From the IMG/VR virus record IMGVR_UViG_3300020352_000005, positions 1-56,571 of that record: a DNA stretch of 56,571 nt; one strand, written 5' to 3'. This document shows, piece by piece, positions 323-40,094 of this stretch. Each line of letters opens with the position of its first letter. Position 1 is the first letter of the stretch. The notes under the pieces are model-generated. The model was not told where the DNA came from and did not search any database. It was given only the letters and a program-made list of their open reading frames with translations. Position numbers and translations under genes: made by a program. This DNA comes from a virus (lineage: Duplodnaviria; Caudoviricetes).

Positions 323-336
323 TGTTCACACTCATC
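323..336 (+). repeat. 14-bp dispersed repeat TGTTCACACTCATC, copy 1
   Basis: Exact copies at 323-336, 5121-5134 and 17246-17259 (+), and 8651-8664 (-). Confidence 0.9.
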
Positions 337-1191: not shown

Positions 1192-2193
1192 ATGAATGTA
1201 CTATCATTATTCGATGGCATGTCCTGTGGACAGATAGCCCTCAAGAATCTTGGTGTAAAAGTAGACAACTACTATGCATCAGAGATTGACAAGTATGCTA
1301 TAAAGATAGCAAAGAAAAACTTCCCTGACATGATTCATGTTGGGGACGTTACTCAGGTAGAATCCAAACACTTTGGTGCTGACGGATTCAATACAAAGAT
1401 AGACCTTATCATGGGTGGTAGCCCATGTCAAGGGTTTAGTAGAGCAGGTAAGAACCTCAACTTTGATGACCCTAGGAGCAAGTTGTTCTTTGAGTTTGTC
1501 AGGTTATTAAAGGAACTCAAACCAAAGTATTTTCTACTAGAGAATGTAAAGATGACAAAAGAACACAGAGATACTATATCAAATGTGTTGGGTGTTGAGC
1601 CAATATACATAGACTCAGCACTTGTATCTGCACAAACCAGGAAGAGATACTATTGGACAAACATACCCTATATCTTTGGGCCTATCAATCAACACATAGT
1701 ATTGAAAGATATTATTCAAACAGAAGGAGAGCTTGAAGGTTCTGCTGTTGATGAGAGAATGGTAACCAATAAAGGTAAAGCGTATTGTCTTACAGCACGA
1801 TACGATGGTGCTGTATGGTGGAACAGCATAGAGAGAAGCCAACGCACTATGATTAGGATAGAAGACAAGGTGTGTTTTCCTGAAGCCACAAAGAAAGGGT
1901 ACGCTGCCGTAGGTATTGGAGAAGGTCTAGACCTATCTTATCCTAGCAGCACAACTAGAAGAGGTAGAGCGTTGACAGACAAGGCACATTGCCTGACTAC
2001 TATCTCACCTAATCAAGGCATCATTAATGAGAAATACAATTGGAGAAAGCTCACACCTGTAGAATGTGAGAGGCTTCAAACTGTGCCTGATAATTACACA
2101 GAAGGTGTGTCTAACTCTCAACGTTACAAGATGTTGGGTAATGGTTGGACAGTTAAAGTAATTGAACATATATTAAAAAACATGGAGATATGA
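1192..2193 (+). CDS. DNA (cytosine-5) methyltransferase
   Basis: Motif I SLFDGMSCG, catalytic GSPCQGFS, ENV, QTRKRYYW and C-terminal KMLGNGW; ATG at 1192. Confidence 0.92.
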   Translation: MNVLSLFDGMSCGQIALKNLGVKVDNYYASEIDKYAIKIAKKNFPDMIHVGDVTQVESKHFGADGFNTKIDLIMGGSPCQGFSRAGKNLNFDDPRSKLFFEFVRLLKELKPKYFLLENVKMTKEHRDTISNVLGVEPIYIDSALVSAQTRKRYYWTNIPYIFGPINQHIVLKDIIQTEGELEGSAVDERMVTNKGKAYCLTARYDGAVWWNSIERSQRTMIRIEDKVCFPEATKKGYAAVGIGEGLDLSYPSSTTRRGRALTDKAHCLTTISPNQGIINEKYNWRKLTPVECERLQTVPDNYTEGVSNSQRYKMLGNGWTVKVIEHILKNMEI

Positions 2194-2795
2194 ATTTATT
2201 AACACAAAACAGTAAGTTAAAGAAGACAAGTAAAGCCCTCGATTTGAGGGTTTTTAATTTTGGAATACCTGCATACAAGTCTGCATCAGGCAAACTAACC
2301 TGCCCTATGGCTGACGAGTGTGTCAAGTTCTGCTATGCAAAGAAAGGTGCGTACGTTTGGAGTAACGTTCAGCCTGCATTTGAGAAGAGGTATCAACTAA
2401 GTAAGACGTTAGAGTTTATTGATGCTATGAATGCCGAGATAAAAAAGAAACGTCCTGACTATGTAAGAGTACACGATAGTGGTGACTACTATTCTAGGAG
2501 TTATCTAGCCAAGTGGATATCGATAGCAAGAGCAAATCCAAGTGTGCGATTTTATAGCTACACAAATATGGTGGACATGATGCACAAAGCTGATCTTCCT
2601 GAAAACTATGATATTATATTTAGTGATTCAGGTAAGCAAAAACATATGATAAATAAAGACGTGGATAGACACACTAAAATATTTGACAGTAAGCAGAGCT
2701 TAAAAGATGCAGGATATGTAGACGCCTCAGACACAGACCTTTACGCAACCAAGTGGTTCAACCAAACAAACAAGGTTGGATTAGTTTTTCATTAA
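2190..2795 (+). CDS. GP88-like protein (Cys cluster, radical-SAM-like)
   Basis: NSKLKK N-terminus, TCPMADECVKFCYA, RVHDSGD and FYSYT motifs. Confidence 0.7.
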   Translation: MNLLTQNSKLKKTSKALDLRVFNFGIPAYKSASGKLTCPMADECVKFCYAKKGAYVWSNVQPAFEKRYQLSKTLEFIDAMNAEIKKKRPDYVRVHDSGDYYSRSYLAKWISIARANPSVRFYSYTNMVDMMHKADLPENYDIIFSDSGKQKHMINKDVDRHTKIFDSKQSLKDAGYVDASDTDLYATKWFNQTNKVGLVFH

Positions 2796-2866
2796 AAAAA
2801 ACAAATAAAAGTTGCATAATAAATAAATTATTATTATTTTTACAAACACAATTTAATTTAATCATC

Positions 2867-3118
2867 ATGGGAAAATCAAAAGAAATGTTCAACAGAGAAC
2901 GTGAACAACAATCAGAAACATTAGCATCATTTATTGACGATGAATACCAGATTGCTGAGTATCATCACAACCAACAACGCTTAGTATTGAATGAGATATT
3001 CACAGCGTGGGGTGAGATATTTGGAGGCACTAAAGAGAGTGCGTTCAATCTATCAAAATCCAAAAAAACTAAGTTTAACCTAAGTAAAAACAAATCAAAT
3101 GAAGAGAGGAATATTTAA
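2867..3118 (+). CDS. hypothetical protein
   Basis: ATG at 2867 (MGKSKE) after an AT-rich intergenic stretch. Confidence 0.6.
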   Translation: MGKSKEMFNREREQQSETLASFIDDEYQIAEYHHNQQRLVLNEIFTAWGEIFGGTKESAFNLSKSKKTKFNLSKNKSNEERNI

Positions 3119-3407
3119 TAAATATGTTAACTATGTCTGTTCAGAGATAGGCGTATCAAAGAAAGAGTTATTCTCAAAGACTAGGGCGGAAAGGTTGTCT
3201 ACAGCAAGATTTTTATTGTATGCTGTATGTTATCAAAGACCTATGAGTATAATTCAAATAGTAGACCTTATGTCTGAGAATGGCTACAATATAACTAGAC
3301 AAAATGTAGAGTATGGGATATCTAAAATAAATCAATCAGAAGACATTGATGTCCTTAACTTTATAAACTCGGCAGTAGATTATTGTAAAGAAGAAACTAT
3401 AGCATAA
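3099..3407 (+). CDS. DnaA C-terminal (domain IV)-like HTH DNA-binding protein
   Basis: ELFSKTRAERLSTARFLLYAVC...ITRQNVEYGISKI resembles the DnaA domain IV pattern. Confidence 0.55.
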   Translation: MKRGIFNKYVNYVCSEIGVSKKELFSKTRAERLSTARFLLYAVCYQRPMSIIQIVDLMSENGYNITRQNVEYGISKINQSEDIDVLNFINSAVDYCKEETIA

Positions 3408-3790
3408 TGAAGTACAGTTTGAATCAAGTATGGGAACAGGCCAAGTCTTTTAAGAAAAGTGCTTGCTTAGATTTTCGTAGAGAGGAGGCATACATATATA
3501 AAGGTATTAAAATTACTAAAAACAATGACAATATTAATATATATAGCACAAACAACGCACAGTTCCAGTATCATGAAATGAAGGAAGATCAATATGATTT
3601 GTTCATGGAGTTGGGATTTGTTGATGCCACTCATGAAATAGTAAAGACAATCTATCAGAGTAAAATCAATAAGATTAATGATAAGATAAAAAACGAAATC
3701 AATACGAGAAACAATAAGAAACATTATGATTCATTAAAATTTAAGAGAGATAATTTAATTAATAAATACAGTAACATAACTAAAAAGTAA
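3407..3790 (+). CDS. hypothetical protein
   Basis: 127-aa ORF coupled by a TAATG overlap. Confidence 0.7.
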   Translation: MKYSLNQVWEQAKSFKKSACLDFRREEAYIYKGIKITKNNDNINIYSTNNAQFQYHEMKEDQYDLFMELGFVDATHEIVKTIYQSKINKINDKIKNEINTRNNKKHYDSLKFKRDNLINKYSNITKK

Positions 3791-5120: not shown

Positions 5121-5134
5121 TGTTCACACTCATC
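5121..5134 (+). repeat. 14-bp dispersed repeat, copy 2
   Basis: TGTTCACACTCATC immediately after the exonuclease stop codon. Confidence 0.9.
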
Positions 5135-8527: not shown

Positions 8528-9749
8528 AGATTACCAACAAAACATAATAGACAAGGGAACACAAGTGCTACTGTCTAAAAAGTTTTTATACTTGTCTATG
8601 GAAGTTAGGACAGGTAAAACACTTACCTCATTAGGAATAATAAATAAAGTGATGAGTGTGAACAATGTGTTGTTCATCACGAAGAAGAAGGCGATAAGTA
8701 GTATTGAAAAAGACTACGAGCTTTTAAATCCAAGCTACAGTATTCAAGTAATTAATTATGAATCTCTGCATAAGGTAGAGCCAAAAGGTTGGGATGCTAT
8801 TGTATGTGACGAAGCTCACGGCATGGGTGCGTTTCCAAAACCTAGCAAACGAGCAAAGCAAGTTCGTGATTTAATACGCAAAAATAATTGTTACGTTATT
8901 TTGCTATCAGGTACACCAACACCTGAGAGTTACAGTCAAATGTATCACCAGGTGTATGGTATACCAAACAATCCTTTCAATAAGTATTCAAACTTTTATA
9001 AGTTCGCTAGAGATTATGTTAGAATAACCACTAAAAGAATTGGTGGTTTTATGGTTAATGATTATTCAAATGCGAAGGATATTATAATAGATGAGATGAA
9101 ACCTTATACAATTTCATACACACAAAAAGAAGCAGGCTTTGAGTCTTCTATTAAAGAAAAAGTTTTGTTTGTAGATGCGCCAGATAAGATACACTCACTA
9201 TGTTCTAAGCTAAAAAAAGATTTAGTAGTTGAAGGTTCTGATGAGGTTATACTTGCAGACACAAGTGTAAAGCTTATGCAGAAGTTACACCAAATGTATA
9301 GTGGTACTGTTAAGTTTGAAAGTGGTAACTCTATGGTGTTAGACTTGTTTAAAGCTCAATACATATACGATAATTTTTGTTGCAATAAAATAGGGATATT
9401 CTACAAGTTTAAAGAAGAGCTTAATGCCATTAAAGAAGTTTATGGAGACCAAGTATGTACAGATCTTGAAGAGTTTAATGAAACAGATAAATCTATAGCC
9501 TTACAAATTGTATCAGGGCGTGAAGGTATATCCTTACGAGAAGCTAAGTATTTAATATATTATAATATAGACTTTAGCGCTACAAGTTATTGGCAGTCTA
9601 GAGATAGAATGACTACAAAAGAAAGACTTGAGAATGAAGTGTTCTGGATTTTTACTGAAGGTGGTATAGAAAGTAAAATATACAAATCAGTAAGTAAGAA
9701 AAAAGATTATACTTTAAATCATTTCAGACGAGATTTATTAACTTTATAA
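8514..9749 (+). CDS. SF2 (SNF2-like) DNA helicase
   Basis: FRDYQ, RTGKT, DEAH, SGTP and QSRDR motifs. Confidence 0.85.
   Translation: MIQFRDYQQNIIDKGTQVLLSKKFLYLSMEVRTGKTLTSLGIINKVMSVNNVLFITKKKAISSIEKDYELLNPSYSIQVINYESLHKVEPKGWDAIVCDEAHGMGAFPKPSKRAKQVRDLIRKNNCYVILLSGTPTPESYSQMYHQVYGIPNNPFNKYSNFYKFARDYVRITTKRIGGFMVNDYSNAKDIIIDEMKPYTISYTQKEAGFESSIKEKVLFVDAPDKIHSLCSKLKKDLVVEGSDEVILADTSVKLMQKLHQMYSGTVKFESGNSMVLDLFKAQYIYDNFCCNKIGIFYKFKEELNAIKEVYGDQVCTDLEEFNETDKSIALQIVSGREGISLREAKYLIYYNIDFSATSYWQSRDRMTTKERLENEVFWIFTEGGIESKIYKSVSKKKDYTLNHFRRDLLTL
8651..8664 (-). repeat. 14-bp dispersed repeat, copy 3 (inverted, inside the helicase CDS)
   Basis: GATGAGTGTGAACA on the + strand; encodes part of VMSVNN. 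Confidence 0.9.
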
Positions 9750-13205: not shown

Positions 13206-13296
13206 AGAACAAATACTAAAAGAAAAATACAAGCCAAAGCCTAATTATAATTTGATAAGAAAGCTTCAACAGCTTCTAGATAAGAAAAAAACCTAA
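13189..13296 (+). CDS. 35-aa basic peptide
   Basis: MKDHIKEQILKEKYKPKPNYNLIRKLQQLLDKKKT; last gene of the + arm, stop overlaps the convergent gene stop. Confidence 0.4.
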   Translation: MKDHIKEQILKEKYKPKPNYNLIRKLQQLLDKKKT

Positions 13297-16200
13297 AGGT
13301 TCTCTAGCTCTTTTTCTAGAGCCTTTAATTCTTTTTCTATATTTATCTCGTCATAACTCTTAGGCGCTTTGTTTCTTTTTTGAAACTCTTTTTGCTTCAT
13401 AAATCTGTTGTATTCTTTAATATCGTAAAACTTTAATTCTTCTAAAGTAAAAGGTTTAACCTTGTCGCCTTCTTTAAATTCTTCTTCTAAAAACCCTTTT
13501 CTTATATCTCTATAGAAAGGAACCCCTCCAAAGATGTTGGCCATTTCAATAGCTGTTCTGCTTGAAAATAATTTATCTAAATTTTCTTGTCTACTTTCCT
13601 CTGTTGCATTATTAGCGTATCTAAGGCCTAGTTTAGCAACTCTTAGCGCTGATTTTGCGTAAGGATTAAAAGGACCAGACAACTGAAGCAATGTAGCTTC
13701 TTCTAAATTTCTAGCAGCATTCGATGGGTTTATAGTGGCGTACACAAGACCATGTTGCAAGCCATTATATTCTTCTTCTGACCTTAGCCCAACTTCGTAT
13801 CCATACTCTTTGTTTAAAGACTCTATAGCAAAGTTTAATGGAATCATCGGTATGTTTCCAGTTACACCTCTTGAAATTAATGATGTAGCAGCTCCCACGA
13901 CCTGTCGAAAACCTAGTTCTTCATAATCTGTATCGTCTTCATCTCCAATACCTAGCATTCCAAACATTGCTCCGTTTAGATATCTTAATAGCATTACATA
14001 CATAGACATTCTAACTCCAACTCCTGCTAATGTTGATGCGCCCCTAACTACTCCTAACTGACCTTGTCCTGCCATTGAGGCTACCGCTTGTCTAGCCGTT
14101 GCATATTCATTAAGACTAAATCTAGACATATATCCATTTACCATTCTGTAAAAGTTCATCATGCCTTCACTATCTTGAGCTTGATTTTTTAGCACCGAAG
14201 AAAATGGGTCATTGGATGTTGCAGCCATAGTCACGTTTTGATCTGCCTTGTTCGTTGCTTTTTGAATTGCGTCTTTATACTTGTTTATGTAGTCTGAATC
14301 GTTTTCAGCTATTTTGTCGAAGTCTACTTTTGAACCTGTTTCAGCTTTAAATGTTTTTGCAAAAGTACCAAACCATAAAGGCCTAGATATGTATTGGTCA
14401 GGTTTTGTTACTAATGTCTCCCCTATTTTTGATACAGCTTTTGGAACGTGCTTTATTCCTGTGTTTCTTACAACATATTCTACTGTTTGACCTACGCCAC
14501 CTTTAGCTCTAGGTGACGATTTCTTTTTCGTAATTCCTTGAGAATCTGCTTTTGAACCACCTAATTGCTCGTCTGAATATAATTTTGTGTTTTGCGTGGA
14601 TGATACATTCTCGACAACAGCCCTTCCTTTATTAGTCATAGAAAGCTTTCCATATGTCGTAGACCCTATAGCAAATTCTCCAGGCGCTGCTAATGCTGCG
14701 AAAGCAAGGTTAGAAGCATATTCAGCTCCTGCCCTTGGAACAGACGCTAATGTTGAATAGTAGCCAAGCGTTCTAGCATTGTTGAGTAGCTTGCCACCTA
14801 ACACCGTGCTACTCATGTTGTTTGTAACCACGTTGTTTAGGGCCTCGCTATAAATTTTGTTTAAATCTAATACAGCCTCATTAAGTTGGTCTTGCTGTTC
14901 GTCTGTTTTAGACTCATCATTTTTTGTCATATTCTTTAAAGCAGCCATTGATTGTCTAGTGGTAGATATCTCATTACTCATAAAATAATCCATACCTGTA
15001 TTTCTAGTTGCTCTTAAAGCAGTTGTTATAGGATCAAAGTCTATGGCTGTTGCTCCTGACCTTGCAAAAGACGTGCTTGATTTTGTCCCTGGTTTTAAGC
15101 TTAAAAAATTTATTGCATTTTGAAAATTAGCATCGTCTCTTTCCTCACCTTTATAATCCGCCTTGTGGTGGACATAATTATTTACCAAGTCAAGCTCATT
15201 ACCTCTAACAATTCTAGTTGCATAAGATTGAAGCTCTCCTAGTCCTGAATAAACCCCTTGTAGCAAACCTAATGCTTTTTTGGTTTTTGTAGACATAGCA
15301 TCCTCCATCTTTTTGAGGGATATCTGCCCATCTTCACTATATTCTTGTGCTATTTTATTAAGTATAGCTATACTATTTTCATTATACTTGCTAGCTTTTT
15401 TATCAGAATTATATCTAGCTATAGTGTCTTCTATAAACTTTATTGCTGGGTTTGTACCTTTTTTGTTTGGATTAGACTCGTATTCTAGCTGAAGCAAGTA
15501 TGTTGTTAATTCAAATCTTCTTTTTACCGATTGATTTATACCTTCTTTTCTACTAGGTGCTATTAAAGACTCTATTGCGTCAATAATGTCAGTCTGTCCG
15601 TTAATCCAATTTTTAAATCTAGCGTGCGCTTGTGCAGTAGGTCGTATAGCATTTTCATATATAGTATTGTTTTTATAGTTCCCAAACATTTGATCCATCA
15701 CACTTAGTGGGTTTGACCTAATCATTTGACCTCTAATACCCACTTGTTTAGCAGCTCTTGAAGAACCAAATCCAACCTTTCCTAATCCATTTTTTACACT
15801 AGCAGCTGCATACTGTCTCATTGTAGAAAGCTTTCCTTTTACTGTAAACATTTTATCTAAAATAGGCTTCATATTGGTAGACCTATCATTAGCAGCTACC
15901 TTTTGTGCTATGTTGTTTGTGAAGTGCGTGTAAAACCCTTCGGACATGTTGTCTAAATATACATCCAACTGAGACAGTTCTTTCCCTGTAAGCATAGCTA
16001 ACTGACCTTTGTTTAATCCTCTTAAAGTTCTAGGGCCTACACTTTGTTCTAAAGAAATTTTGCTTAGATTATTTAAGTTTACGTTTCTAGATTTTTTAGC
16101 AGTATTGTTTATAAGCTTTTGTCTATTCTCTGCATAATCATTTAACTCTTGAACAAGCTCTGAGTTGTTCTCGTTTTCTGCTGAGTTTACTTTGTCAACA

Positions 16201-19200
16201 AGAATCTCCAATGTCCCTGAGTCTAATGAGTCTAATTTATTTTGTATAAAATCAGAGTTTTCTTCTATAATAGTTTCACCGCTTACCTCTGGATTTAGTA
16301 TGTTATCTACTGCCTGTTTATCTTTTGCCGTTGATACTTTTTCAACTATATTTTGCTCTGTTTTTATTTTTGGAGCTAACGAATTAAGCAGGTCATTTGC
16401 TTCTTTAACCAACTCATTGTCTAGCTTTCTTTTTGGGTCTCTTTTAGTTACTTTTTGCAAAAACTCATTATATGCTTTTATTTCAGCTGAACTTAAGTCA
16501 GTTGTAGGAGTTAAAATTATTTGAGATATAGCTCCGCTTAAGTTTCCATTATCTCCATACTCACCTTTATTTACTTTTTTTGTAGCTCTCGTTTTTAGCT
16601 TATTTGCTATATCTACATCATTTGCAAAATCTGCATCAGAAAATACCTTCTCTACATATTGCTCAACCTTTTTAACAGCAGCAGGATTGTCTAAATTTAA
16701 GTTAGGGTTGTTAACTTTATTTAAAACAGCTCTAAGTTGAGCGGCAGTAATTTTACCCTTTCTTTTTTTAGCATAAGCTTTTATTCCATCATTAAGACTT
16801 TTTCTTTTCTGCTTCAAATCCATTTTCTTTTCTCGAGCAGATTGATTCCATGCTTTCCAAAATCTTTTTCTTTGTGCATTTTCTTTTTCAGGCTTGGCCA
16901 TGTCTTGATTGGTAGTGCTTTTGGTGGAAGCTAATATGGCCTTATATGTATCGGCTGTAACAGTTTGACTATTTGTTTTAGCAATGGCCTCTACTTCAGC
17001 TTGAACATCAGCCTGAGAGCCTGCGTATAAATCTATATCTGCATTGCTGAACTCTTTATCTCCTCTAGCAATTTTGATAGCTAAAGCTCTTTCTCGTGAC
17101 TTATCTTTAGGAATGTTCTTTTTCTTTTGTGCAATTGCTTTGTCAATAGCTTCTTGATTTTCAGCATAAAATTGAAGGGCATCATCAGAAAACTGAGTAG
17201 TTCCATCTTGCTCAATAATTCTATTAGCAAAAGACTCAACCTTGTTGTTCACACTCATCACCTCTTTTTCGCTAGAGGTTTCAGCTATCTGTTCAGTATC
17301 TGTCTGCGTAGTCGTGTTGCTAGTTTGGTCGGTTTCCGTTTCCGTTTCGGTGTCACCCTCTGGGGTAACGCTTGATTCAACGTCTCCTTCTCCCACTTGT
17401 CGCAGTCCCACTTCGGACTCTGCCCCATCTTTTTTGCTTGCTGCATCATCTGGTAACACTTGCTTCTCTGTGCTTGGCTCTTGAATGGCATCTTCTTGTT
17501 TTTTATCGGTTTTTAAATCTTTTTTAGTTAGGTCTGTATATTCTAACTTTTCGTCTACATCCATTATGCTAAAGTTATCTATAGCTCTTTGAGTTATAGC
17601 TCCATCATCTATGGTGTAGTTTTTTTCTCCCCTATCTTCTGCCTCTTTTTTAAGTTCTTTTGCAGCTTCGTCTTTTAATTTTAGCTTACCTTTTGCATTG
17701 ACATAATCAAATTGAGTTCGTGTTGTTATTTCATTTCTCAGTTCTTGTATTTTTTCATCTATCTCTGGATGAAATGATTTATCTCTTTTCTTTTTTAACT
17801 GCTCTTGTTTTTGAATTTCGTTAATTGACTGCATTACAACCAATGAAGTTTCAGGACTCAGGTTTGTGGGTATGCTGTTTATGGTATTTACATAGATATC
17901 AATGTCTGACAACAAGTTAGAAACCTGCTCTTCGGAATATACGCCTTGAGTTACCATACTGTTCAAAAACTCTTTTGTCTTATCTACATCTTGAGACAAA
18001 CCATGTAGAGCTTCCAATCTGTCAATTGCGGCTGCACCTGGATTAAAATTAGCTTTAATAGATTTAGATGTGGATGATGCAAGATCACCGCCAAAAGGCA
18101 TTATAAGCCCTGCAAGCCCTGCTAATATTGTGGTATTAGTGTATTCAGCACCTGTTATGGTGTTGTTCATTATTTCTTTCCTAGCAACTTCATTTACATT
18201 TTCTGCAATTACAAAAGCTTGACCTGCCTGTTGCACGTTTTCTTGAAATATTTCTTTAACACTTTCTTTTACATATACAGGATAATTTTGAACTACTTTT
18301 TGTTGTATTCTTTTGAAGTAAGCGTTAAGGCCTTTCTCTCCTCCTTTTTCATAAGCATCTACAAGTCCTCTTGTTAACTTTTCAGTTCCTTTTTTACCAA
18401 AAATTTTATTCATAGCTACTGTCTGTGTAGATATTGGTGCTGTTAATGAACCTAAAGCAAACCCCTGCGCACCTGCTTTTTGTCTTAGCTCTACTGCTGT
18501 AGCCTGATCAATTCCGTTTGCAATAGCTTGGTCATATGTACTACTAGCTAAATTTGTAGAAAACAATGTTCCCTGAGCAATCATAGCAGATGCTGTAGTG
18601 CCTTTCATTGGTATACTAGATAATCCACTTACAACTTTTCTACCTTTATCAAAATTACCTAGAAGAGCAGCTCCACCTCTACCTACGTTTCCAACACCAC
18701 GAGTAAGAGCTATTTGTAATAGCATGTCACTTGCTATTCCTGTAGTCGCTATTACTGTACCTGAACCACTAAAGCTTTTAAATTCTTTATCGCTTTGAGC
18801 AACTTCTCTTCTTATGGAGTCAGCCATTGCTTCAGTCAAAACGTTTGTAACATTTTTCTTTATACCTAAATCATATATCTGACCTCTTTCATCAATACCA
18901 TATTCTCGACCATTGTAAAAGGCTTTTTTTCCAGAAGCATAAGCATACCTCATAAAATCATCTCTCTCTAAATCATCTTGAGCATCTCGCATTCGTATTT
19001 CATCAGCCACACTATTCATTCCAATAAGTCCATAAGTGCCTTTTGAAAAGCTATGTATTCTATCTTCTACAGAACGCCAACCTTGTTTTACCGATTGTGT
19101 AAACCAAGGGTTCTCTCCATCTAAATATCTCTGATAGTTTTCTTGATTTTCAATATCTTGGTTTTTTAGTTTAGCAGTTAATGATGGAAACTGTTTTTCA

Positions 19201-20489
19201 ATATAATCAGCCATAGCTATATCATCAACTCCTGTACTGAAGTTTAGCTGAACACCATCTAAAGAAGGGTGTCTACCATTGTTATTTGATTGATAATCTA
19301 AAATTTGAAACTCTACATTTCTTTCTACTTGCTTGTTTATGTAATTTGTTAAATACTGAGCTTTTAATCTTTCAGCTGCAAGTGTTGGATTGTAGTTTCC
19401 TGAATAGTCATGAAACCGACCATCTTCAGCTATGGTTTCGTCATCAAGAAGCTCCATATACCTGTCCATGTATCCTTGTTCTTTCAAATACCCATCGAAA
19501 TCTTTTATATTAAATCCTTTAATTGATTTTAAATTTTGAGTATCATACATCATATGTATGTCAGAGTCCTCAAACCCTGTTGGCGTAAAATCATCTTCCA
19601 CAAGCTCATACTCTTCATCTGTTACAAAGTTAGGGTCATCAGGTCTATTTAGTATAGCGCTTAATTCTTCGGCTGTTGCATTTGGATTTTCATCTTGTAG
19701 TCTTTTACTCTCTGCATCATAAGCTATAATTTTTTTTCTTATAGACTCTTTTTTTTCAAAATCTCCTTCTGGAGCAACAAATTCCACCAAATCAGAAGAC
19801 TCTTCAAAAGCGTGCGTCTTGTCTAGTCTTTGGTCTGTTATTTTTTGTTTATAAGACTCAGGAGATTCGACTGCTAAAGACTGAAGTTTTTTAATGGCAT
19901 TTTTATTTCCACGAAGAGCATCGTCAATAAGTTTTTCACTTATAAACCCTTGCTCTAAAGCCTTTGAAATATTAAAGTCGGAAAGAAATTTTGATTTCAA
20001 TAAAGGGTCAACTTCTCTTGATTGCTCTCGCATCATTCTAGCCCTTGCAGAAGCACCTGGGTTTAAACTAGACTCTGTAGCTGTGTCAACCTGCATTAAA
20101 GAGTTTAAGTCATCTTGTAGGTACTCAACCTCTTCAGGTAACTCAACGTCTTCAGGAACGCCTGTATCTTCTTGGTTAGGCGTTTGTGTTTTTTCTTCCA
20201 CGGAAGAATCCAAGGAGCCAGGTTGACTTTCCGTTTCGATAGTGGATTCCGTAACTTCCGTTTCCAAATTTGAATCTGAAGTGTCGTTTGAATTTTTTTT
20301 TTCACCGAATCCTACTAATATAGAAAAATCAGATATATCTTTTGTATATCCTTTTGATTTGACATACTCAAAATTATCATTTAAAACTTCATCATCCGAA
20401 GATATCAGCTGCTGAAATTCCTGTATAGATTTGCTATACCCCTTTGATTTGGCTCTTTCGTATAAATCTTGTAATACCTCTTGATCCAT
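13293..20489 (-). CDS. giant internal virion / DNA ejection protein (putative)
   Basis: 2398 aa, helical and charged; last of three successive large ORFs after the tail genes, as for podovirus ejection proteins. Confidence 0.6.
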   Translation of the reverse strand: MDQEVLQDLYERAKSKGYSKSIQEFQQLISSDDEVLNDNFEYVKSKGYTKDISDFSILVGFGEKKNSNDTSDSNLETEVTESTIETESQPGSLDSSVEEKTQTPNQEDTGVPEDVELPEEVEYLQDDLNSLMQVDTATESSLNPGASARARMMREQSREVDPLLKSKFLSDFNISKALEQGFISEKLIDDALRGNKNAIKKLQSLAVESPESYKQKITDQRLDKTHAFEESSDLVEFVAPEGDFEKKESIRKKIIAYDAESKRLQDENPNATAEELSAILNRPDDPNFVTDEEYELVEDDFTPTGFEDSDIHMMYDTQNLKSIKGFNIKDFDGYLKEQGYMDRYMELLDDETIAEDGRFHDYSGNYNPTLAAERLKAQYLTNYINKQVERNVEFQILDYQSNNNGRHPSLDGVQLNFSTGVDDIAMADYIEKQFPSLTAKLKNQDIENQENYQRYLDGENPWFTQSVKQGWRSVEDRIHSFSKGTYGLIGMNSVADEIRMRDAQDDLERDDFMRYAYASGKKAFYNGREYGIDERGQIYDLGIKKNVTNVLTEAMADSIRREVAQSDKEFKSFSGSGTVIATTGIASDMLLQIALTRGVGNVGRGGAALLGNFDKGRKVVSGLSSIPMKGTTASAMIAQGTLFSTNLASSTYDQAIANGIDQATAVELRQKAGAQGFALGSLTAPISTQTVAMNKIFGKKGTEKLTRGLVDAYEKGGEKGLNAYFKRIQQKVVQNYPVYVKESVKEIFQENVQQAGQAFVIAENVNEVARKEIMNNTITGAEYTNTTILAGLAGLIMPFGGDLASSTSKSIKANFNPGAAAIDRLEALHGLSQDVDKTKEFLNSMVTQGVYSEEQVSNLLSDIDIYVNTINSIPTNLSPETSLVVMQSINEIQKQEQLKKKRDKSFHPEIDEKIQELRNEITTRTQFDYVNAKGKLKLKDEAAKELKKEAEDRGEKNYTIDDGAITQRAIDNFSIMDVDEKLEYTDLTKKDLKTDKKQEDAIQEPSTEKQVLPDDAASKKDGAESEVGLRQVGEGDVESSVTPEGDTETETETDQTSNTTTQTDTEQIAETSSEKEVMSVNNKVESFANRIIEQDGTTQFSDDALQFYAENQEAIDKAIAQKKKNIPKDKSRERALAIKIARGDKEFSNADIDLYAGSQADVQAEVEAIAKTNSQTVTADTYKAILASTKSTTNQDMAKPEKENAQRKRFWKAWNQSAREKKMDLKQKRKSLNDGIKAYAKKRKGKITAAQLRAVLNKVNNPNLNLDNPAAVKKVEQYVEKVFSDADFANDVDIANKLKTRATKKVNKGEYGDNGNLSGAISQIILTPTTDLSSAEIKAYNEFLQKVTKRDPKRKLDNELVKEANDLLNSLAPKIKTEQNIVEKVSTAKDKQAVDNILNPEVSGETIIEENSDFIQNKLDSLDSGTLEILVDKVNSAENENNSELVQELNDYAENRQKLINNTAKKSRNVNLNNLSKISLEQSVGPRTLRGLNKGQLAMLTGKELSQLDVYLDNMSEGFYTHFTNNIAQKVAANDRSTNMKPILDKMFTVKGKLSTMRQYAAASVKNGLGKVGFGSSRAAKQVGIRGQMIRSNPLSVMDQMFGNYKNNTIYENAIRPTAQAHARFKNWINGQTDIIDAIESLIAPSRKEGINQSVKRRFELTTYLLQLEYESNPNKKGTNPAIKFIEDTIARYNSDKKASKYNENSIAILNKIAQEYSEDGQISLKKMEDAMSTKTKKALGLLQGVYSGLGELQSYATRIVRGNELDLVNNYVHHKADYKGEERDDANFQNAINFLSLKPGTKSSTSFARSGATAIDFDPITTALRATRNTGMDYFMSNEISTTRQSMAALKNMTKNDESKTDEQQDQLNEAVLDLNKIYSEALNNVVTNNMSSTVLGGKLLNNARTLGYYSTLASVPRAGAEYASNLAFAALAAPGEFAIGSTTYGKLSMTNKGRAVVENVSSTQNTKLYSDEQLGGSKADSQGITKKKSSPRAKGGVGQTVEYVVRNTGIKHVPKAVSKIGETLVTKPDQYISRPLWFGTFAKTFKAETGSKVDFDKIAENDSDYINKYKDAIQKATNKADQNVTMAATSNDPFSSVLKNQAQDSEGMMNFYRMVNGYMSRFSLNEYATARQAVASMAGQGQLGVVRGASTLAGVGVRMSMYVMLLRYLNGAMFGMLGIGDEDDTDYEELGFRQVVGAATSLISRGVTGNIPMIPLNFAIESLNKEYGYEVGLRSEEEYNGLQHGLVYATINPSNAARNLEEATLLQLSGPFNPYAKSALRVAKLGLRYANNATEESRQENLDKLFSSRTAIEMANIFGGVPFYRDIRKGFLEEEFKEGDKVKPFTLEELKFYDIKEYNRFMKQKEFQKRNKAPKSYDEINIEKELKALEKELENL
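17246..17259 (+). repeat. 14-bp dispersed repeat, copy 4 (inside the giant CDS)
   Basis: TGTTCACACTCATC; the coding strand reads VMSVNN as in copy 3. Confidence 0.9.
17285..17491 (-). CDS. nested +1-frame small basic protein (MPFKSQAQR...)
   Basis: ATG in an A-rich context (AAAAAACAAGAAG-ATG), local GC ~50%, composition like the small basic late proteins. Confidence 0.55.
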   Translation of the reverse strand: MPFKSQAQRSKCYQMMQQAKKMGQSPKWDCDKWEKETLNQALPQRVTPKRKRKPTKLATRLRRQILNR

Positions 20490-34241: not shown

Positions 34242-35360
34242 TTACTTTTTTTTACTTTTAATCCTTAATCCTCGTCCGCTAGAGTCCGAAACTTGTCTTG
34301 CTTTGAAACCTGTATCTCCAATTGATTGAGGTGTTTGCCTAATGTTCATGTTGACGTTTTTACTTTTTTTAGTAACATCTCCAATTGCATCTGCTTTACC
34401 CTGCTCGTAGAAATAATTTGCAAATCTTTGAGGGTTCATAGCTGCACTTAATGCAGTATGCCATCCCTTAGCATCACTTATCAAACCATCTTCGCCTACA
34501 TATTTTTTGACGAAATTGTTTAAGTCGCTTTGCTTAGATTTCATTTCATTAACATCACCATAAGAATACTTTACTTTTTTGTCTCCTACTTCGAACTCAA
34601 AACCTTTGAACTCAGGATTAAAAACTTCATTTGTCTTCTTTAAGAAAAACTCATTTTTCCTTTGGTTAGCCTCTAATGCAGATTTAGATTCTTCTATATA
34701 ACTTCTATAAGCTTCGATTTCTTTATTTTGTTTTTCAGAAATAGCGCTCCCACTTGACTCAAGAGGAACTCTGTATTTTTCCTTAAACTCATTAAGATAT
34801 TTCTTAGCTTTTGAAAGCTCTCGTTTTTTAGCTATATTTTTCTTTTTAATATCTTTCTCATCATCAAGTTCTTGATCGTAAGAAAATTTTTCATCCATTA
34901 AATAATGAATATCTTCACTATCTAAATCAGTTTCTGTTAAAGAGTAATATTCTGCTAATACTTGGTCGTCATTTAATTCATCGTAATTTTTATTTGCTTT
35001 TACGAAATCTTCAAATCCACGTCCAGTTTCTTTTTTAAAATCTAAATACTTAGACACATCTTCAGGTAATTCACCTGCCTGCTCTTTTTCAGCAAACAAA
35101 TCATCAACAGATGATATGTCTTTATCATATCTGTTTTTAATATATGAAAGAACGTCTTCGTCTTTTATAGTTGGACTTTCAACTTCCGAGCTATTCTCGG
35201 TATTTTGTTCTACAGGTTGATTTTCAACAACTTCTGCAGCGGTATTTTCATCAGCAGTATTTACTGCTGTTTCTTTTTCGTGTTTTTGTAGTAGAGTTTC
35301 TTCTACTTCCTGAACAGATTTTTCTGGAACAGGATCTAATGATTTTACTTTAATTTCCAT
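34242..35360 (-). CDS. scaffolding protein (putative)
   Basis: Acidic disordered N-terminus, ANYFYEQGKADA motif and basic C-terminus; between portal and capsid genes. Confidence 0.65.
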   Translation of the reverse strand: MEIKVKSLDPVPEKSVQEVEETLLQKHEKETAVNTADENTAAEVVENQPVEQNTENSSEVESPTIKDEDVLSYIKNRYDKDISSVDDLFAEKEQAGELPEDVSKYLDFKKETGRGFEDFVKANKNYDELNDDQVLAEYYSLTETDLDSEDIHYLMDEKFSYDQELDDEKDIKKKNIAKKRELSKAKKYLNEFKEKYRVPLESSGSAISEKQNKEIEAYRSYIEESKSALEANQRKNEFFLKKTNEVFNPEFKGFEFEVGDKKVKYSYGDVNEMKSKQSDLNNFVKKYVGEDGLISDAKGWHTALSAAMNPQRFANYFYEQGKADAIGDVTKKSKNVNMNIRQTPQSIGDTGFKARQVSDSSGRGLRIKSKKK

Positions 35361-37868: not shown

Positions 37869-40094
37869 TTATTGTATAATTTGGCTATAACTTCCCTTAT
37901 TGTCGTATCTTGCAAAGTTAAGTTTTATTTTTGATTTCTTTTTAATGGGTTGGTAAAGTCCCTTTTGTGTCGCCATAATAGCTAAACCTGAGCTAATAGA
38001 TGCATCAAACTTGGTTCTATTGTTAATATTAAACCTAGCCCAATCTTCAAGAGTTCTGCTAAAATACATAGAACCCATTGAGTCAGAATCTCTAAATACA
38101 CTATCTAAATCTAATCCAACGTGCTTTTCTATATAAGATTCTATTGCTGCTGCATGAGCTTGTTTTATGTCTTCAGAACTATTGGGAATACCTCCTAACT
38201 CTCTTTCGGTTTTAGATAATTTAGTATATATTTTATCTGGTCTGTTCATAGAAAATCCTCTGTACCCTCTGTTTTTAAAATGATACAAAAGACGAGGTTT
38301 ATTATTTTCTATTAATATTGGCATTCCATAAAACACACAAGCCATTAAAACATCTTCAAAAAATATTTCAGCTGTTTGAGGTCTTGCTATGTACTCTAAA
38401 AAAAACTCATTAGTAGGCCCTTCATCCATATGAAATTTAGTCATTCCGTGCAACGCTCCATTTGAACCTCCTCCACCAACTGTTCCTGATATATCGTAAC
38501 TATCACAACCAAATGCCCCCATGTGTTCGTTCTTTGGATATTTTATCCCTCCCTTTATATAATATTTGTTTTGCAAATGTTTGTTTGGAGTCCAAGAAAC
38601 ATAAAACCTGCCCCTATCGTTTGGAGAAAAAATAACTTCTGTATCTTTTATTCCATTTTTCCAAGAAAAAGACCCCCTAGTAATAAATCTATCTTTTATT
38701 AAGGAATCGTTATAATCTATTTGCTGATAAATTTTTTGTAGATTAAACAAAGATTGCTTGCTCTCATCTCTAAAAGCATGAGACTCAGTTCTTGGAAATT
38801 GTCTATAATATTCGTTCAATCCGTCAGGATCTGATTTCAACCCTTCTACTTCGTTATTCCAATGGTCTATAACTCCTGTATCAATAACTTCTGCGTAAGG
38901 GCCAATGCAATCTTCCTGTGGGGTTTCGAATACAGGCATTCCATAAGAATCAATGAATCCCTCGTAATTCCATTCCATAGGAATGAACAAAGAATATAAT
39001 CCTGACTTAGTTTGTCCATTCTTATTTCGCTTTCTAACATCTGAATCGTTGTAAAGTTTTTTAAAATTTCCACCTCCTTTTTCTAAAGAATTAGATGTTG
39101 AACCCATCATGCATTTTCCTATAACTCTAGCACCCAATCTTAAACAGGTTTTTGTAACTCTCCAGTTGTTTAATATGTTATCAGGCTTTTCCCACTTGCC
39201 ACTTTCATCGTGAGCTAGTAGTTTTAATTTTTCCCCATCGTATGAGTTGTCCCCTGTGTTCTTCCAGTCGATTGTGGTATCGAGACCTTCAAGCTCCTTG
39301 ACTGCTTCGTTCGCATCCAATTTTTTTCTTGTAAGTTTGGAGGCAGGTACTCTATAGGCAAGTTCTGTCTTGGGCCTGTCCATACCGTCCTGGATGGGTT
39401 TGAAAAAGAAGGGGTAGTTGAGTGATATCGGTACGACTTTGTCGGTAAACATCTTTTTAGCATCCGACCCAGTCTTTGACAATATACCATAACGTGAATC
39501 TCGTGAGGTTGTTGCCAAATGCACGAGTTCCGATGAGGACATGAAGCTAAACCCAGAGCGCCTGTTTTTAAGATAGCACATTCCGTACGATCTTGAGTCT
39601 GATTTACAAGCCTCCCAGAATATAAAGAATAATCGGTTTGATTCCCTAAAGTTTGGCTGCCCAACGTCAATTTTGGTCCAGCGCAAGTACATGTAATGAG
39701 AGCCAGTAATATAAGAAGGCTTGTCTTTATTAAAAAACCAAAAACCTTGTTCTCTTCTTTCAAACTCTTTGTCAATATAGTCATACCATTTTTCTTTAAA
39801 ATTATCAGGATATTTATCCCAATCAAATACACTTTTTATTTTGCTTAACTCTTTTGGGTATTCTATTTCCTCCCAATAATTTTTTTTAAAACGATATACA
39901 TCTTTTTCTTTAGGTAAAGCAATTTTTAAATTTTGTATTTCATATATCTCACCAATTGTGCCATCTTTAGATATAATAACTATGTCATATTCTGCATTAT
40001 ATCCGTAGTTCCATAACCTTTTTTTGTTATTAGAACTTATCACCTTTTCAGGCACAACGTCTTCTAGTATTTTATATAAACTCTGCTCGTACAT
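37869..40094 (-). CDS. terL: terminase large subunit
   Basis: Walker A KNRRSGFS, Walker B AHDESGKW, coupling motif GST, nuclease GCDSYD, ENNK and FDASISSG. Confidence 0.9.
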   Translation of the reverse strand: MYEQSLYKILEDVVPEKVISSNNKKRLWNYGYNAEYDIVIISKDGTIGEIYEIQNLKIALPKEKDVYRFKKNYWEEIEYPKELSKIKSVFDWDKYPDNFKEKWYDYIDKEFERREQGFWFFNKDKPSYITGSHYMYLRWTKIDVGQPNFRESNRLFFIFWEACKSDSRSYGMCYLKNRRSGFSFMSSSELVHLATTSRDSRYGILSKTGSDAKKMFTDKVVPISLNYPFFFKPIQDGMDRPKTELAYRVPASKLTRKKLDANEAVKELEGLDTTIDWKNTGDNSYDGEKLKLLAHDESGKWEKPDNILNNWRVTKTCLRLGARVIGKCMMGSTSNSLEKGGGNFKKLYNDSDVRKRNKNGQTKSGLYSLFIPMEWNYEGFIDSYGMPVFETPQEDCIGPYAEVIDTGVIDHWNNEVEGLKSDPDGLNEYYRQFPRTESHAFRDESKQSLFNLQKIYQQIDYNDSLIKDRFITRGSFSWKNGIKDTEVIFSPNDRGRFYVSWTPNKHLQNKYYIKGGIKYPKNEHMGAFGCDSYDISGTVGGGGSNGALHGMTKFHMDEGPTNEFFLEYIARPQTAEIFFEDVLMACVFYGMPILIENNKPRLLYHFKNRGYRGFSMNRPDKIYTKLSKTERELGGIPNSSEDIKQAHAAAIESYIEKHVGLDLDSVFRDSDSMGSMYFSRTLEDWARFNINNRTKFDASISSGLAIMATQKGLYQPIKKKSKIKLNFARYDNKGSYSQIIQ
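37913..37920 (-). promoter_or_regulatory. possible -7 promoter element TAACTTTG inside the terL 3' end
   Basis: TAnnTTTG 44 nt upstream of the portal ATG. Confidence 0.4.
39224..39784 (-). CDS. candidate overprinted +1-frame gene within terL (lipoprotein-like signal)
   Basis: 202-codon open frame (ATG at 39784 gives 186 aa), GC raised to ~48-50%, KTSLLILLALITC segment. Confidence 0.55.
   Translation of the reverse strand: MTILTKSLKEENKVFGFLIKTSLLILLALITCTCAGPKLTLGSQTLGNQTDYSLYSGRLVNQTQDRTECAILKTGALGLASCPHRNSCIWQQPHEIHVMVYCQRLGRMLKRCLPTKSYRYHSTTPSFSNPSRTVWTGPRQNLPIEYLPPNLQEKNWMRTKQSRSLKVSIPQSTGRTQGTTHTMGKN

Follow-up and report, generated by a model that had tools for sequence, protein, structure and literature searches.

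In phage lambda, the gene Rz1 is embedded in the +1 frame of Rz and encodes an outer-membrane lipoprotein with a signal peptide and a lipobox. In phiX174, gene B lies within gene A and gene E within gene D, and a de novo origin within their hosts is generally assigned to both. Here, we describe a probable nested small gene that differs from these in the virus record IMGVR_UViG_3300020352_000005 of IMG/VR (Caudoviricetes), a stretch of 56,571 nucleotides (nt) that was analysed at its full length and is called the window below. Within it, an open reading frame (ORF) of 68 codons occupies the +1 frame of the gene for a giant virion protein. An earlier note on this DNA had proposed that a real gene lies inside the linker of this host protein, and the proposal was supported by tests of homology, conservation and selection. 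As judged from sequence, the ORF is very probably a protein-coding gene with an 8-kDa, strongly basic product.

The same-strand ATG ORF that the earlier note had placed at 17285-17491 was found at exactly these coordinates, on the minus strand like its host (Table 1). Its ATG lies 2998 nt into the host gene, and thus in the +1 frame, and is made from the GAT GCC of host residues D1000-A1001. The sequence AAAAAACAAGAAG stands immediately 5' of this ATG, and the +1 frame is shut by a TAA at 17515-17513, 7 codons upstream. The guanine-plus-cytosine (GC) content at 17341-17400, previously given as about 53%, was measured as 53.3%; it was 50.2% over the nested ORF, 35.7% over the giant gene and 34.7% over the window, so that the nested DNA forms a GC island. 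The nested product has 19 K+R against 4 D+E and an isoelectric point (pI) of 11.1, whereas the host segment encoded by the same DNA, described before as an acidic linker (DAIQEPSTEK...), has 19 D+E against 4 K+R and a pI of 4.05. The charges of the two products therefore mirror each other.

To find homologs, a profile of 9 nested peptides was compared with 1.84 billion representative proteins, and 132 proteins were matched at E<=1e-3, the best at 8.2e-11. Nearly all of them align from residue 1, and 113 of the 132 begin with MPF or MPY at that residue. As a control against circularity, another profile was built from the first 50 residues of these 113 database proteins, with no nested sequence included. 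This database-only profile gave a single match among 974 six-frame segments of the window, at 17512-17288 on the minus strand (E 3.3e-22, 73.8 bits), while the next segment had an E value of 1.2; profile positions 1-49 fell on residues 1-49 of the nested ORF, with position 1 at its ATG. The likeness to the mini-proteins at 50.6-53.3 kb that had been suggested before did not hold, since the family profile matches the nested ORF alone among the 974 segments. All 93 aligned members share M1, P2, F3 and Q8 without exception, and so does the window copy, which also shows the features of a cysteine subtype (C12, W28-D-C30 and W33-E-K-E-T). Among 198 members, Cys12 and the cysteine of the W-x-C motif were both present in 176, both absent in 20 and present singly in only 2; this joint presence or absence in 196 of 198 suggests a contact between them.

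The family also occurs outside the nested layout. In-frame fusions to Pfam domains, all above the Pfam cut-offs, were found for PBCV_basic_adap (protein P0016), L544_NTransf (P0098), DUF5771 (P0020) and DUF5661 (P0064, P0105 and P0121), which indicates that the MPFKS reading frame is translated as protein elsewhere. In P0064, P0105, P0121 and P0127 (441-677 amino acids, aa), an N-terminal MPFKS domain is followed by DUF5661 in three of the four, by Gly/Ala/Gln-rich stretches and by a hydrophobic C-terminal segment, and these proteins look virion-internal. The earlier note had proposed a search for stand-alone homologs, and such homologs exist, the 132 database proteins among them. Free-standing relatives of the short variant are URG13095.1, a 39-aa coding sequence annotated in phage 023Pt_psg01 that is 70% identical over 23 residues, an ORF of Phage C75C1 that lacks annotation, and gp48 (72 aa) of Streptomyces phage Vorvolakos, and further free-standing copies were seen at the IMG/VR loci L016, L017, L018, L037, L041, L069 and L076. 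A tblastn search of GenBank phages matched the nested peptide in 68 Flavobacterium 'elemo' podophages, whose records annotate only a large 'structural protein' over the match; in MT497067, the copy, an unannotated 42-codon ORF (MPFKSKAQMKACYSQDNPKWDCKKWSKETPNKKSLPNKVKKK), lies within the gene annotated as a 3694-aa 'structural protein', again in the +1 frame. These records, and the lack of a Pfam, PHROGs or NCBIfam model, agree with the earlier claim that annotation misses the gene. The MPFKS domain appears to be a widespread, uncurated viral family that is free-standing, N-terminal in longer proteins or nested, and in marine phages nesting in the +1 frame of head-assembly or virion genes seems to be the most frequent of these layouts.

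Relatives of the host gene were picked by the giant protein alone in an IMG/VR search, which gave 14 loci, 13 of them spanning the region. Whether homologous giant genes keep the start and the open +1 frame had been raised as a check. Both ATG-CCN-TTY and an open +1 frame are retained by 11 of the 13, nine with a copy of the Cys type and two with a shorter, non-Cys one; the other two carry a deletion and a stop. In nine loci (L001-L007, L013 and L014), the ORF has 67-68 codons and reads MPFKS[QN]AQR.KCY...PKW[DN]C..[WF]EKETL...LATRLRR..LN, with ATG and stop in place; the L002 copy lies at 13836-14042. In L010 and L012, ATG-CCN-TTC is kept and opens the shorter variant MPFKS.KQE.YL.IN.PK..KKW..KYGS..., and the host-frame text there is very different. 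Outside the nested segment, the giant proteins are about 46% identical and have differing inserted domains around it.

The family was then found to be housed in unrelated genes. When IMG/VR was scanned again with the peptide alignment, 123 loci were confirmed, and 80 of them were retained. At 73 of the 80, a longer same-strand open frame spans the small ORF, which is always in the +1 frame relative to it; the remaining 7 are not nested. Among 77 unique nested copies, the host frames measure 300-450 aa in 45, more than 1500 aa in 21 and 451-1500 aa in 4, and the last 7 are shorter than 300 aa, mostly because they are cut by contig ends. The hosts of about 400 aa sit between the portal gene and the gene for the phrog_13704 virion protein, 3' of the large terminase, that is, in the scaffold position; the host in L035 matches the N-terminal part of the N4-type virion RNA polymerase family. 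The head module of the window has the same order (terminase, portal, a 372-aa gene, phrog_13704), and the 372-aa protein is 43% identical to the cassette hosts of about 400 aa over 281 aa from residue ~91 on (E 9e-77). In the lineage of the window, the small gene sits in the giant gene rather than in the scaffold-position gene. A giant gene in L037, with the same C-terminal family as that of the window (27% identity over ~846 aligned positions, E 1.7e-78), stops 2 nt before a free-standing copy. The latter is 72% identical to the L071 copy, which is nested inside a homologous giant gene, at residue 674. Exactly one copy per record was found in each of 6 records searched whole, and the core of the cassette is a GC island in all 77 nested copies (48.1% vs 32.6%).

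Selective constraint on the two frames was compared over 31 well-aligned codons of the 77 unique nested copies, in which small-frame positions 1, 2 and 3 correspond to host positions 2, 3 and 1; one false match to the pattern, the window ORF at minus-strand offset 39390 that starts MPFNFML, was left out. Nucleotide diversity at small-frame positions 1, 2 and 3 was 0.258, 0.263 and 0.402 (Wilcoxon p=0.008), illustrating that the host wobble position is not the most variable one. In 42 scaffold-position hosts, the diversity at the host wobble position was 0.41-0.60 in each 15-codon window apart from those on the cassette, three in number, with values of 0.275-0.356. A check on synonymous-site constraint had been proposed for the giant gene itself, and host third-position diversity there was 0.127 over the 67 cassette codons and 0.393 elsewhere, with every 30-codon window outside the cassette at or above 0.289. 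This comparison used 7 of 15 aligned giant sequences and 1257 ungapped codons from the first ~1300 host codons (L014 is incomplete); L002 was left out as misaligned, L003 and L007 as duplicates of L001 and L006, and L008-L012 as cassette-less or of the other subtype. For the clade of 10 long copies, translation in the small frame gave an amino-acid identity of 79.4% and translation in the host frame one of 68.9%; overall, the values were 64% vs 53%. The tail is conserved in the 10 long copies, and its diversity at small-frame positions 1, 2 and 3 was 0.223, 0.151 and 0.285, which is the pattern expected from small-frame coding, and the core and the tail thus share the same phase pattern.

Substitutions were also classified by their effect on each frame, using isolated single-base differences in 35 disjoint nearest-neighbour pairs that were 0.7-28% divergent. 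Changes silent in the small frame and changing the host were observed 130 times (this class makes up 16.9% of possible mutations), the reverse class 29 times (22.0%), changes in both frames 44 times (60.4%) and changes silent in both 16 times (0.7%). The ratio of 130:29 between small-only-silent and host-only-silent changes departs strongly from the mutational expectation of 43:57 (binomial p=2.6e-23). From these sequence comparisons, selection is shown to be stronger on the nested frame, and the host frame reads the same DNA as a weakly constrained acidic linker.

The region upstream of the nested start has a characteristic composition. In the 77 nested copies, A makes up 61% of positions -20 to -1, where the average for the host ORFs is 41%, and it rises to 80-90% at -13 to -11, -8, -6, -5, -3 and -2; A stood at -3 in 75% of the starts. 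Among 170 ATGs of the giant mRNA, the nested start ranks second in predicted unpaired probability (0.779; mean 0.471, standard deviation 0.114) and also second in A-richness, and the giant gene's own start is similar (openness 0.62, 70% A). According to PMC6847099, Bacteroidetes lack Shine-Dalgarno sequences and adjust initiation through the structure of the mRNA and through upstream nucleotides, among them the A at -3. The nested leader appears to match this Shine-Dalgarno-independent initiation. Because the leader is unstructured and A-rich, with A at -3, in a Shine-Dalgarno-independent Bacteroidia context, the nested ATG would be used for independent internal initiation on a late structural mRNA, giving a separate small protein. 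In the 77 nested copies, the +1 frame is shut a median of 6 codons 5' of the ATG (range 0-28). Marine DNA runs, as well as metatranscriptome libraries from two studies, contained contigs identical to the window, and one from a metatranscriptome (run X12) spans 17095-17450.

Several observations weigh against a nested gene or narrow what can be said about it. The length of the ORF is not significant: in 2000 codon shuffles of the host gene, in which the longest +1-frame ATG ORF was scored, it reached at least 68 codons in 9.8% (P=0.098). No credible Pfam, PHROGs or NCBIfam family was found for the window peptide or for 30 other members scanned, and no relative was found in the PDB by fold or by profile search. 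The near-identical loci L009 and L011 have lost the start by deletion and carry a +1 stop, and from this loss the nested gene would appear to be dispensable in at least one lineage. The class ratios give rough omega values of 0.05-0.09 (nested frame) and 0.3-0.55 (host frame); like the substitution test, these values are uncorrected for transition bias and multiple hits. RNA libraries may contain DNA, and the metatranscriptome contigs may reveal host mRNA at best. The Bacteroidia host of the window phage is presumed solely from Flavobacterium phages with the same layout.

Four other explanations of the locus were weighed against these data. The linker is rich in Thr, Glu and Asp and would be poor in codon pairs giving +1 stops, and so the ORF might be a compositional by-product; the codon shuffles with their 9.8%, and a second 68-codon open stretch in the +1 frame at 20311-20105, fit this explanation. 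A chance ORF is nevertheless exceedingly improbable, considering that ATG and open frame were retained in 11 of 13 homologs, that the database-only profile matched at E 3.3e-22, that database proteins carry in-frame fusions to Pfam domains and that small-frame-only silent changes are in surplus by 130:29. Alternatively, selection may act on the host-frame peptide [DN]A[IV]Q[EK].S...VL....E[VM]GLQEVGEG, for example as a protease site or a capsid-targeting signal common to proteins of the capsid interior, with the +1 ORF as its shadow. This motif recurs in unrelated host proteins, and the host omega of 0.3-0.55 reveals some constraint; its L-x-E (LQE) also resembles T4-type prohead-protease sites and might be read as one. 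A dominant host frame predicts that the wobble position is the most variable, but it is actually the least or equal-least variable; host-only silent changes are 4.5 times rarer than small-only silent ones, identity is higher in the small frame (79% vs 69% in the clade, 64% vs 53% overall), and the small-frame sequence occurs without the host frame, both free-standing and fused. We consider this explanation very unlikely.

A programmed frameshift could yield either a truncated giant protein with a basic C-terminus or a product that starts at the ATG and returns to the host frame. The N-terminal place of the domain in the long database proteins P0064, P0105 and P0121 agrees with a frameshift, and an A AAA AAG run lies inside the nested ORF. 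This run, however, falls within the optional 8-residue insert that is missing from many copies, the ATG is residue 1 of the family in free-standing genes, and the ORFs, which are 37-68 codons long, end at differing places and share no conserved 3' site. A frameshift from the host frame is made unlikely by the closure of the +1 frame a median of 6 codons before the ATG; a frameshift product would have a frame open from a conserved slippery site, and closure upstream of the ATG is what was found, no systematic scan for slippery heptamers having been made. Frameshifting is thus very improbable as the explanation. An equally improbable one is that a nucleic-acid element, such as a recombination anchor between virion-gene modules or an RNA structure, is primary and coding secondary. 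The GC island in 77 of 77 copies (48.1% vs 32.6%), the position of the cassette at variable-insert junctions, the decayed second copies that flank inserted domains in L006/L007 and L015 and the contigs from a DNA run that match the cassette and diverge at its 5' edge are in line with such an element, but it predicts neither the three-base periodicity of the small frame nor the 130:29 excess. A role as a recombination hotspot could be compatible with coding.

Decayed copies of the cassette were seen at several loci. Near 12720 in L009 and L011, the first ~25 codons are deleted and a stop breaks the remainder (KPKWD-stop-LKWEKETL...), with the host frame open; a second copy was not found in the available parts of both loci. 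Decayed second cassette starts lie 5' of the intact copy at 8161 in L006, 6173 in L007 and 8605-8637 in L015, with a globular inserted domain between the two; the decayed copy in L006/L007 is a weak profile match (E 0.004), and in an elemo phage it is a 10-codon stub, MPFKSKKLMK, ~400 nt upstream. These decayed copies suggest duplication or recombination at the cassette start.

Concerning the structure of the product, an AlphaFold2 model built with 93 family sequences had a mean predicted local distance difference test score of 86.7, with predicted helices at residues 6-22, 30-36 and 56-67. The first ~38 residues would form a small helical domain, MPFKS.AQR..C[YW]...P.W[DN]C..WEKET, and this core is conserved throughout the 77 unique nested copies as well as in database proteins. 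The best matches in BFVD were uncharacterised Harvfovirus and Terrestrivirus proteins with 34-39% identity. A word search with the single sequence in a collection of 5.8 billion clusters gave no match among proteins of near length (37-119 aa), and weak library matches to Choline_sulf_C (E 0.013), phrog_1375 (E 0.005) and phrog_385 (E 0.027) were taken as chance. With low confidence, we propose that the product acts in the capsid interior, either in DNA binding or condensing or as an adaptor to scaffold or internal proteins, because it is positively charged, has an invariant N-terminus and occurs in a single copy per record, because it is constantly placed in or beside scaffold-position and giant virion genes, and because members are fused to the Pfam 'PBCV-specific basic adaptor domain' and to other viral adaptor-type domains.

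Table 1. Positions of the nested gene, its parts, its host and a related head gene in the window
Feature	Position	Strand	Description
Probable nested +1-frame gene (protein P0001)	17491..17285	(-)	68 codons + TAG; MPFKSQAQRSKCYQ...; 8.2 kDa, pI 11.1
Core domain, residues 1-38	17378..17491	(-)	MPFKS.AQR..CY...(optional 8-aa insert)...PKWDC.KWEKET
Basic tail, residues 39-68 (..LPQRVTPKRKRKPTKLATRLRRQILNR)	17288..17377	(-)	peculiar to the clade of the window
A-rich leader of the nested start, AAGATTTAAAAACCGATAAAAAACAAGAAG	17492..17521	(-)	contains TAA 17515-17513
Host-frame shadow, residues 1000-1069, DAIQEPSTEK...TDTEQIA	17283..17492	(-)	acidic, low-complexity; DNA in common with the nested gene
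Host gene, 2398-aa virion protein	20489..13293	(-)	last gene of the minus-strand structural block
372-aa scaffold-position gene, without cassette	34242..35360	(-)	between portal and phrog_13704

The host protein is matched over its C-terminal ~800 aa by phrog_32588 (function unknown), and blastn and tblastn searches of the phage collection, from which close records may be missing, gave no match for parts of the giant gene. Near its 5' end, in an acidic low-complexity region, a second 68-codon stop-to-stop stretch of the +1 frame lies at 20105-20311 on the minus strand; it gave no match to the family profile in the six-frame search of the window. The exact 14-mer TGTTCACACTCATC occurs four times in the window (323-336, 5121-5134, 8651-8664 and 17246-17259), and the last copy lies about 26 nt beyond the nested stop, as the earlier note had said of its repeat. 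As read in the giant mRNA (..GATGAGTGTGAACA..), this copy specifies M-S-V-N, part of an 'MSVNN' motif. All giant-gene homologs have the motif directly behind their variable inserts; in L012 and L013, its M is replaced by V (GTG). A coupling of the nested stop to a restart at the host-frame ATG of MSVNN (17258-17256) was considered and rejected, as this ATG is unremarkable (openness 0.49, A 35%) and lies 100-600 codons further from the cassette in relatives. Elsewhere in the window, a 202-codon GTG ORF at 39227-39832 (-), in the +1 frame of the large-terminase gene (37869-40094), is long for a genome of 35% GC. Its equivalent in L054 is a 181-codon ATG ORF at 1523-2068 within 1201-3411, in the same frame, and the two translations are 47% identical; this ORF may be just a shadow of the conserved terminase.

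With respect to the origin of the nested gene, which the earlier note had described as captured or overprinted, capture fits better than de novo overprinting, since the small family is spread far more widely than any gene that houses it. It is conceivable, although we hold it to be doubtful, that a portable dual-coding cassette, consisting of the MPFKS gene and its acidic shadow, moves by recombination between the linkers of capsid-interior proteins, whether scaffold-position proteins or giant internal or ejected ones, and can escape to a free-standing state. If these proposals are true, nesting would be the usual carriage of the MPFKS gene in marine phages, the production of the small basic protein, acting in the capsid interior or with DNA, would be tied to the mRNA of its partner, with whose acidic stretch, read from the same DNA, the basic product might pair, and a core gene for head assembly or for delivery of the genome would lie unannotated in hundreds of phage genomes. 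Gene callers treat the giant and scaffold-position genes as single, and a conserved gene of the virion module would thus be absent both from annotations and from the Pfam, PHROGs and NCBIfam libraries. The locus points to a candidate small basic component of head assembly or genome delivery, bears on the choice of internal starts by Shine-Dalgarno-independent ribosomes and would be a good system in which to compare the origin of overlaps by capture and by de novo overprinting. In the open-access literature searched, no description of the family or its layout was found, and the letters MPFKS occurred in one paper, as the last residues of an unrelated peptide from an E. coli phage.

Compared with its own relatives, the nested gene shares MP[FY]KS..Q, the W..[KE][ET] motif and a basic tail with the free-standing proteins (URG13095.1, gp48 and those of C75C1, L037 and L041), which are 70-72% identical to nested non-Cys copies. 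The free-standing proteins differ in that they are not nested, the host-equivalent frame being shut within 3-30 codons, and in that they are mostly non-Cys, whereas the window copy belongs to the Cys subtype and has an 8-residue insert and a clade-specific tail. The giant-virus proteins with an N-terminal MPFKS domain, which comprise the fusions to the PBCV basic adaptor domain, DUF5771 and the L544 nucleotidyltransferase together with the Harvfovirus and Terrestrivirus proteins, have the same core motif, both cysteines and both tryptophans. They differ in that their coding frame is a conventional one without overlap and that additional domains follow. DUF3008 (PF11450) comprises similarly small, basic viral and bacterial proteins and was the nearest Pfam-bearing language-model cluster (0.84), a score that ranks as a lead only; no HMMER match to it at E<=10 was obtained among the 31 family members scanned against Pfam.

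The arrangement resembles lambda Rz/Rz1 in that a small same-strand gene with its own start is fully nested in the +1 frame, both genes presumably being expressed from one late mRNA. There is no homology between the two systems, however, and the nested product here lacks a hydrophobic N-terminus and has two cysteines in a polar helical domain; an Rz1-type spanin was rejected, as the N-terminus MPFKSQAQRSK is polar and basic and cysteines 12 and 30 lie inside predicted helices. The hosts here are head-assembly and virion genes instead of lysis genes, and the nested family also occurs free-standing, fused and within non-homologous hosts. With the phiX174-type overlaps, the locus shares same-strand nested coding and a suppressed synonymous variation in the host frame. 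It differs from them in that the nested family is wider than any host, extending over several phage kinds and giant viruses of eukaryotes, and for this reason the host linker appears to be the derived reading. Relative to the known nested phage genes, the small MPFKS gene would seem to represent a broader and older family, the more constrained partner of its overlap and one that keeps a fixed frame in non-homologous virion genes.

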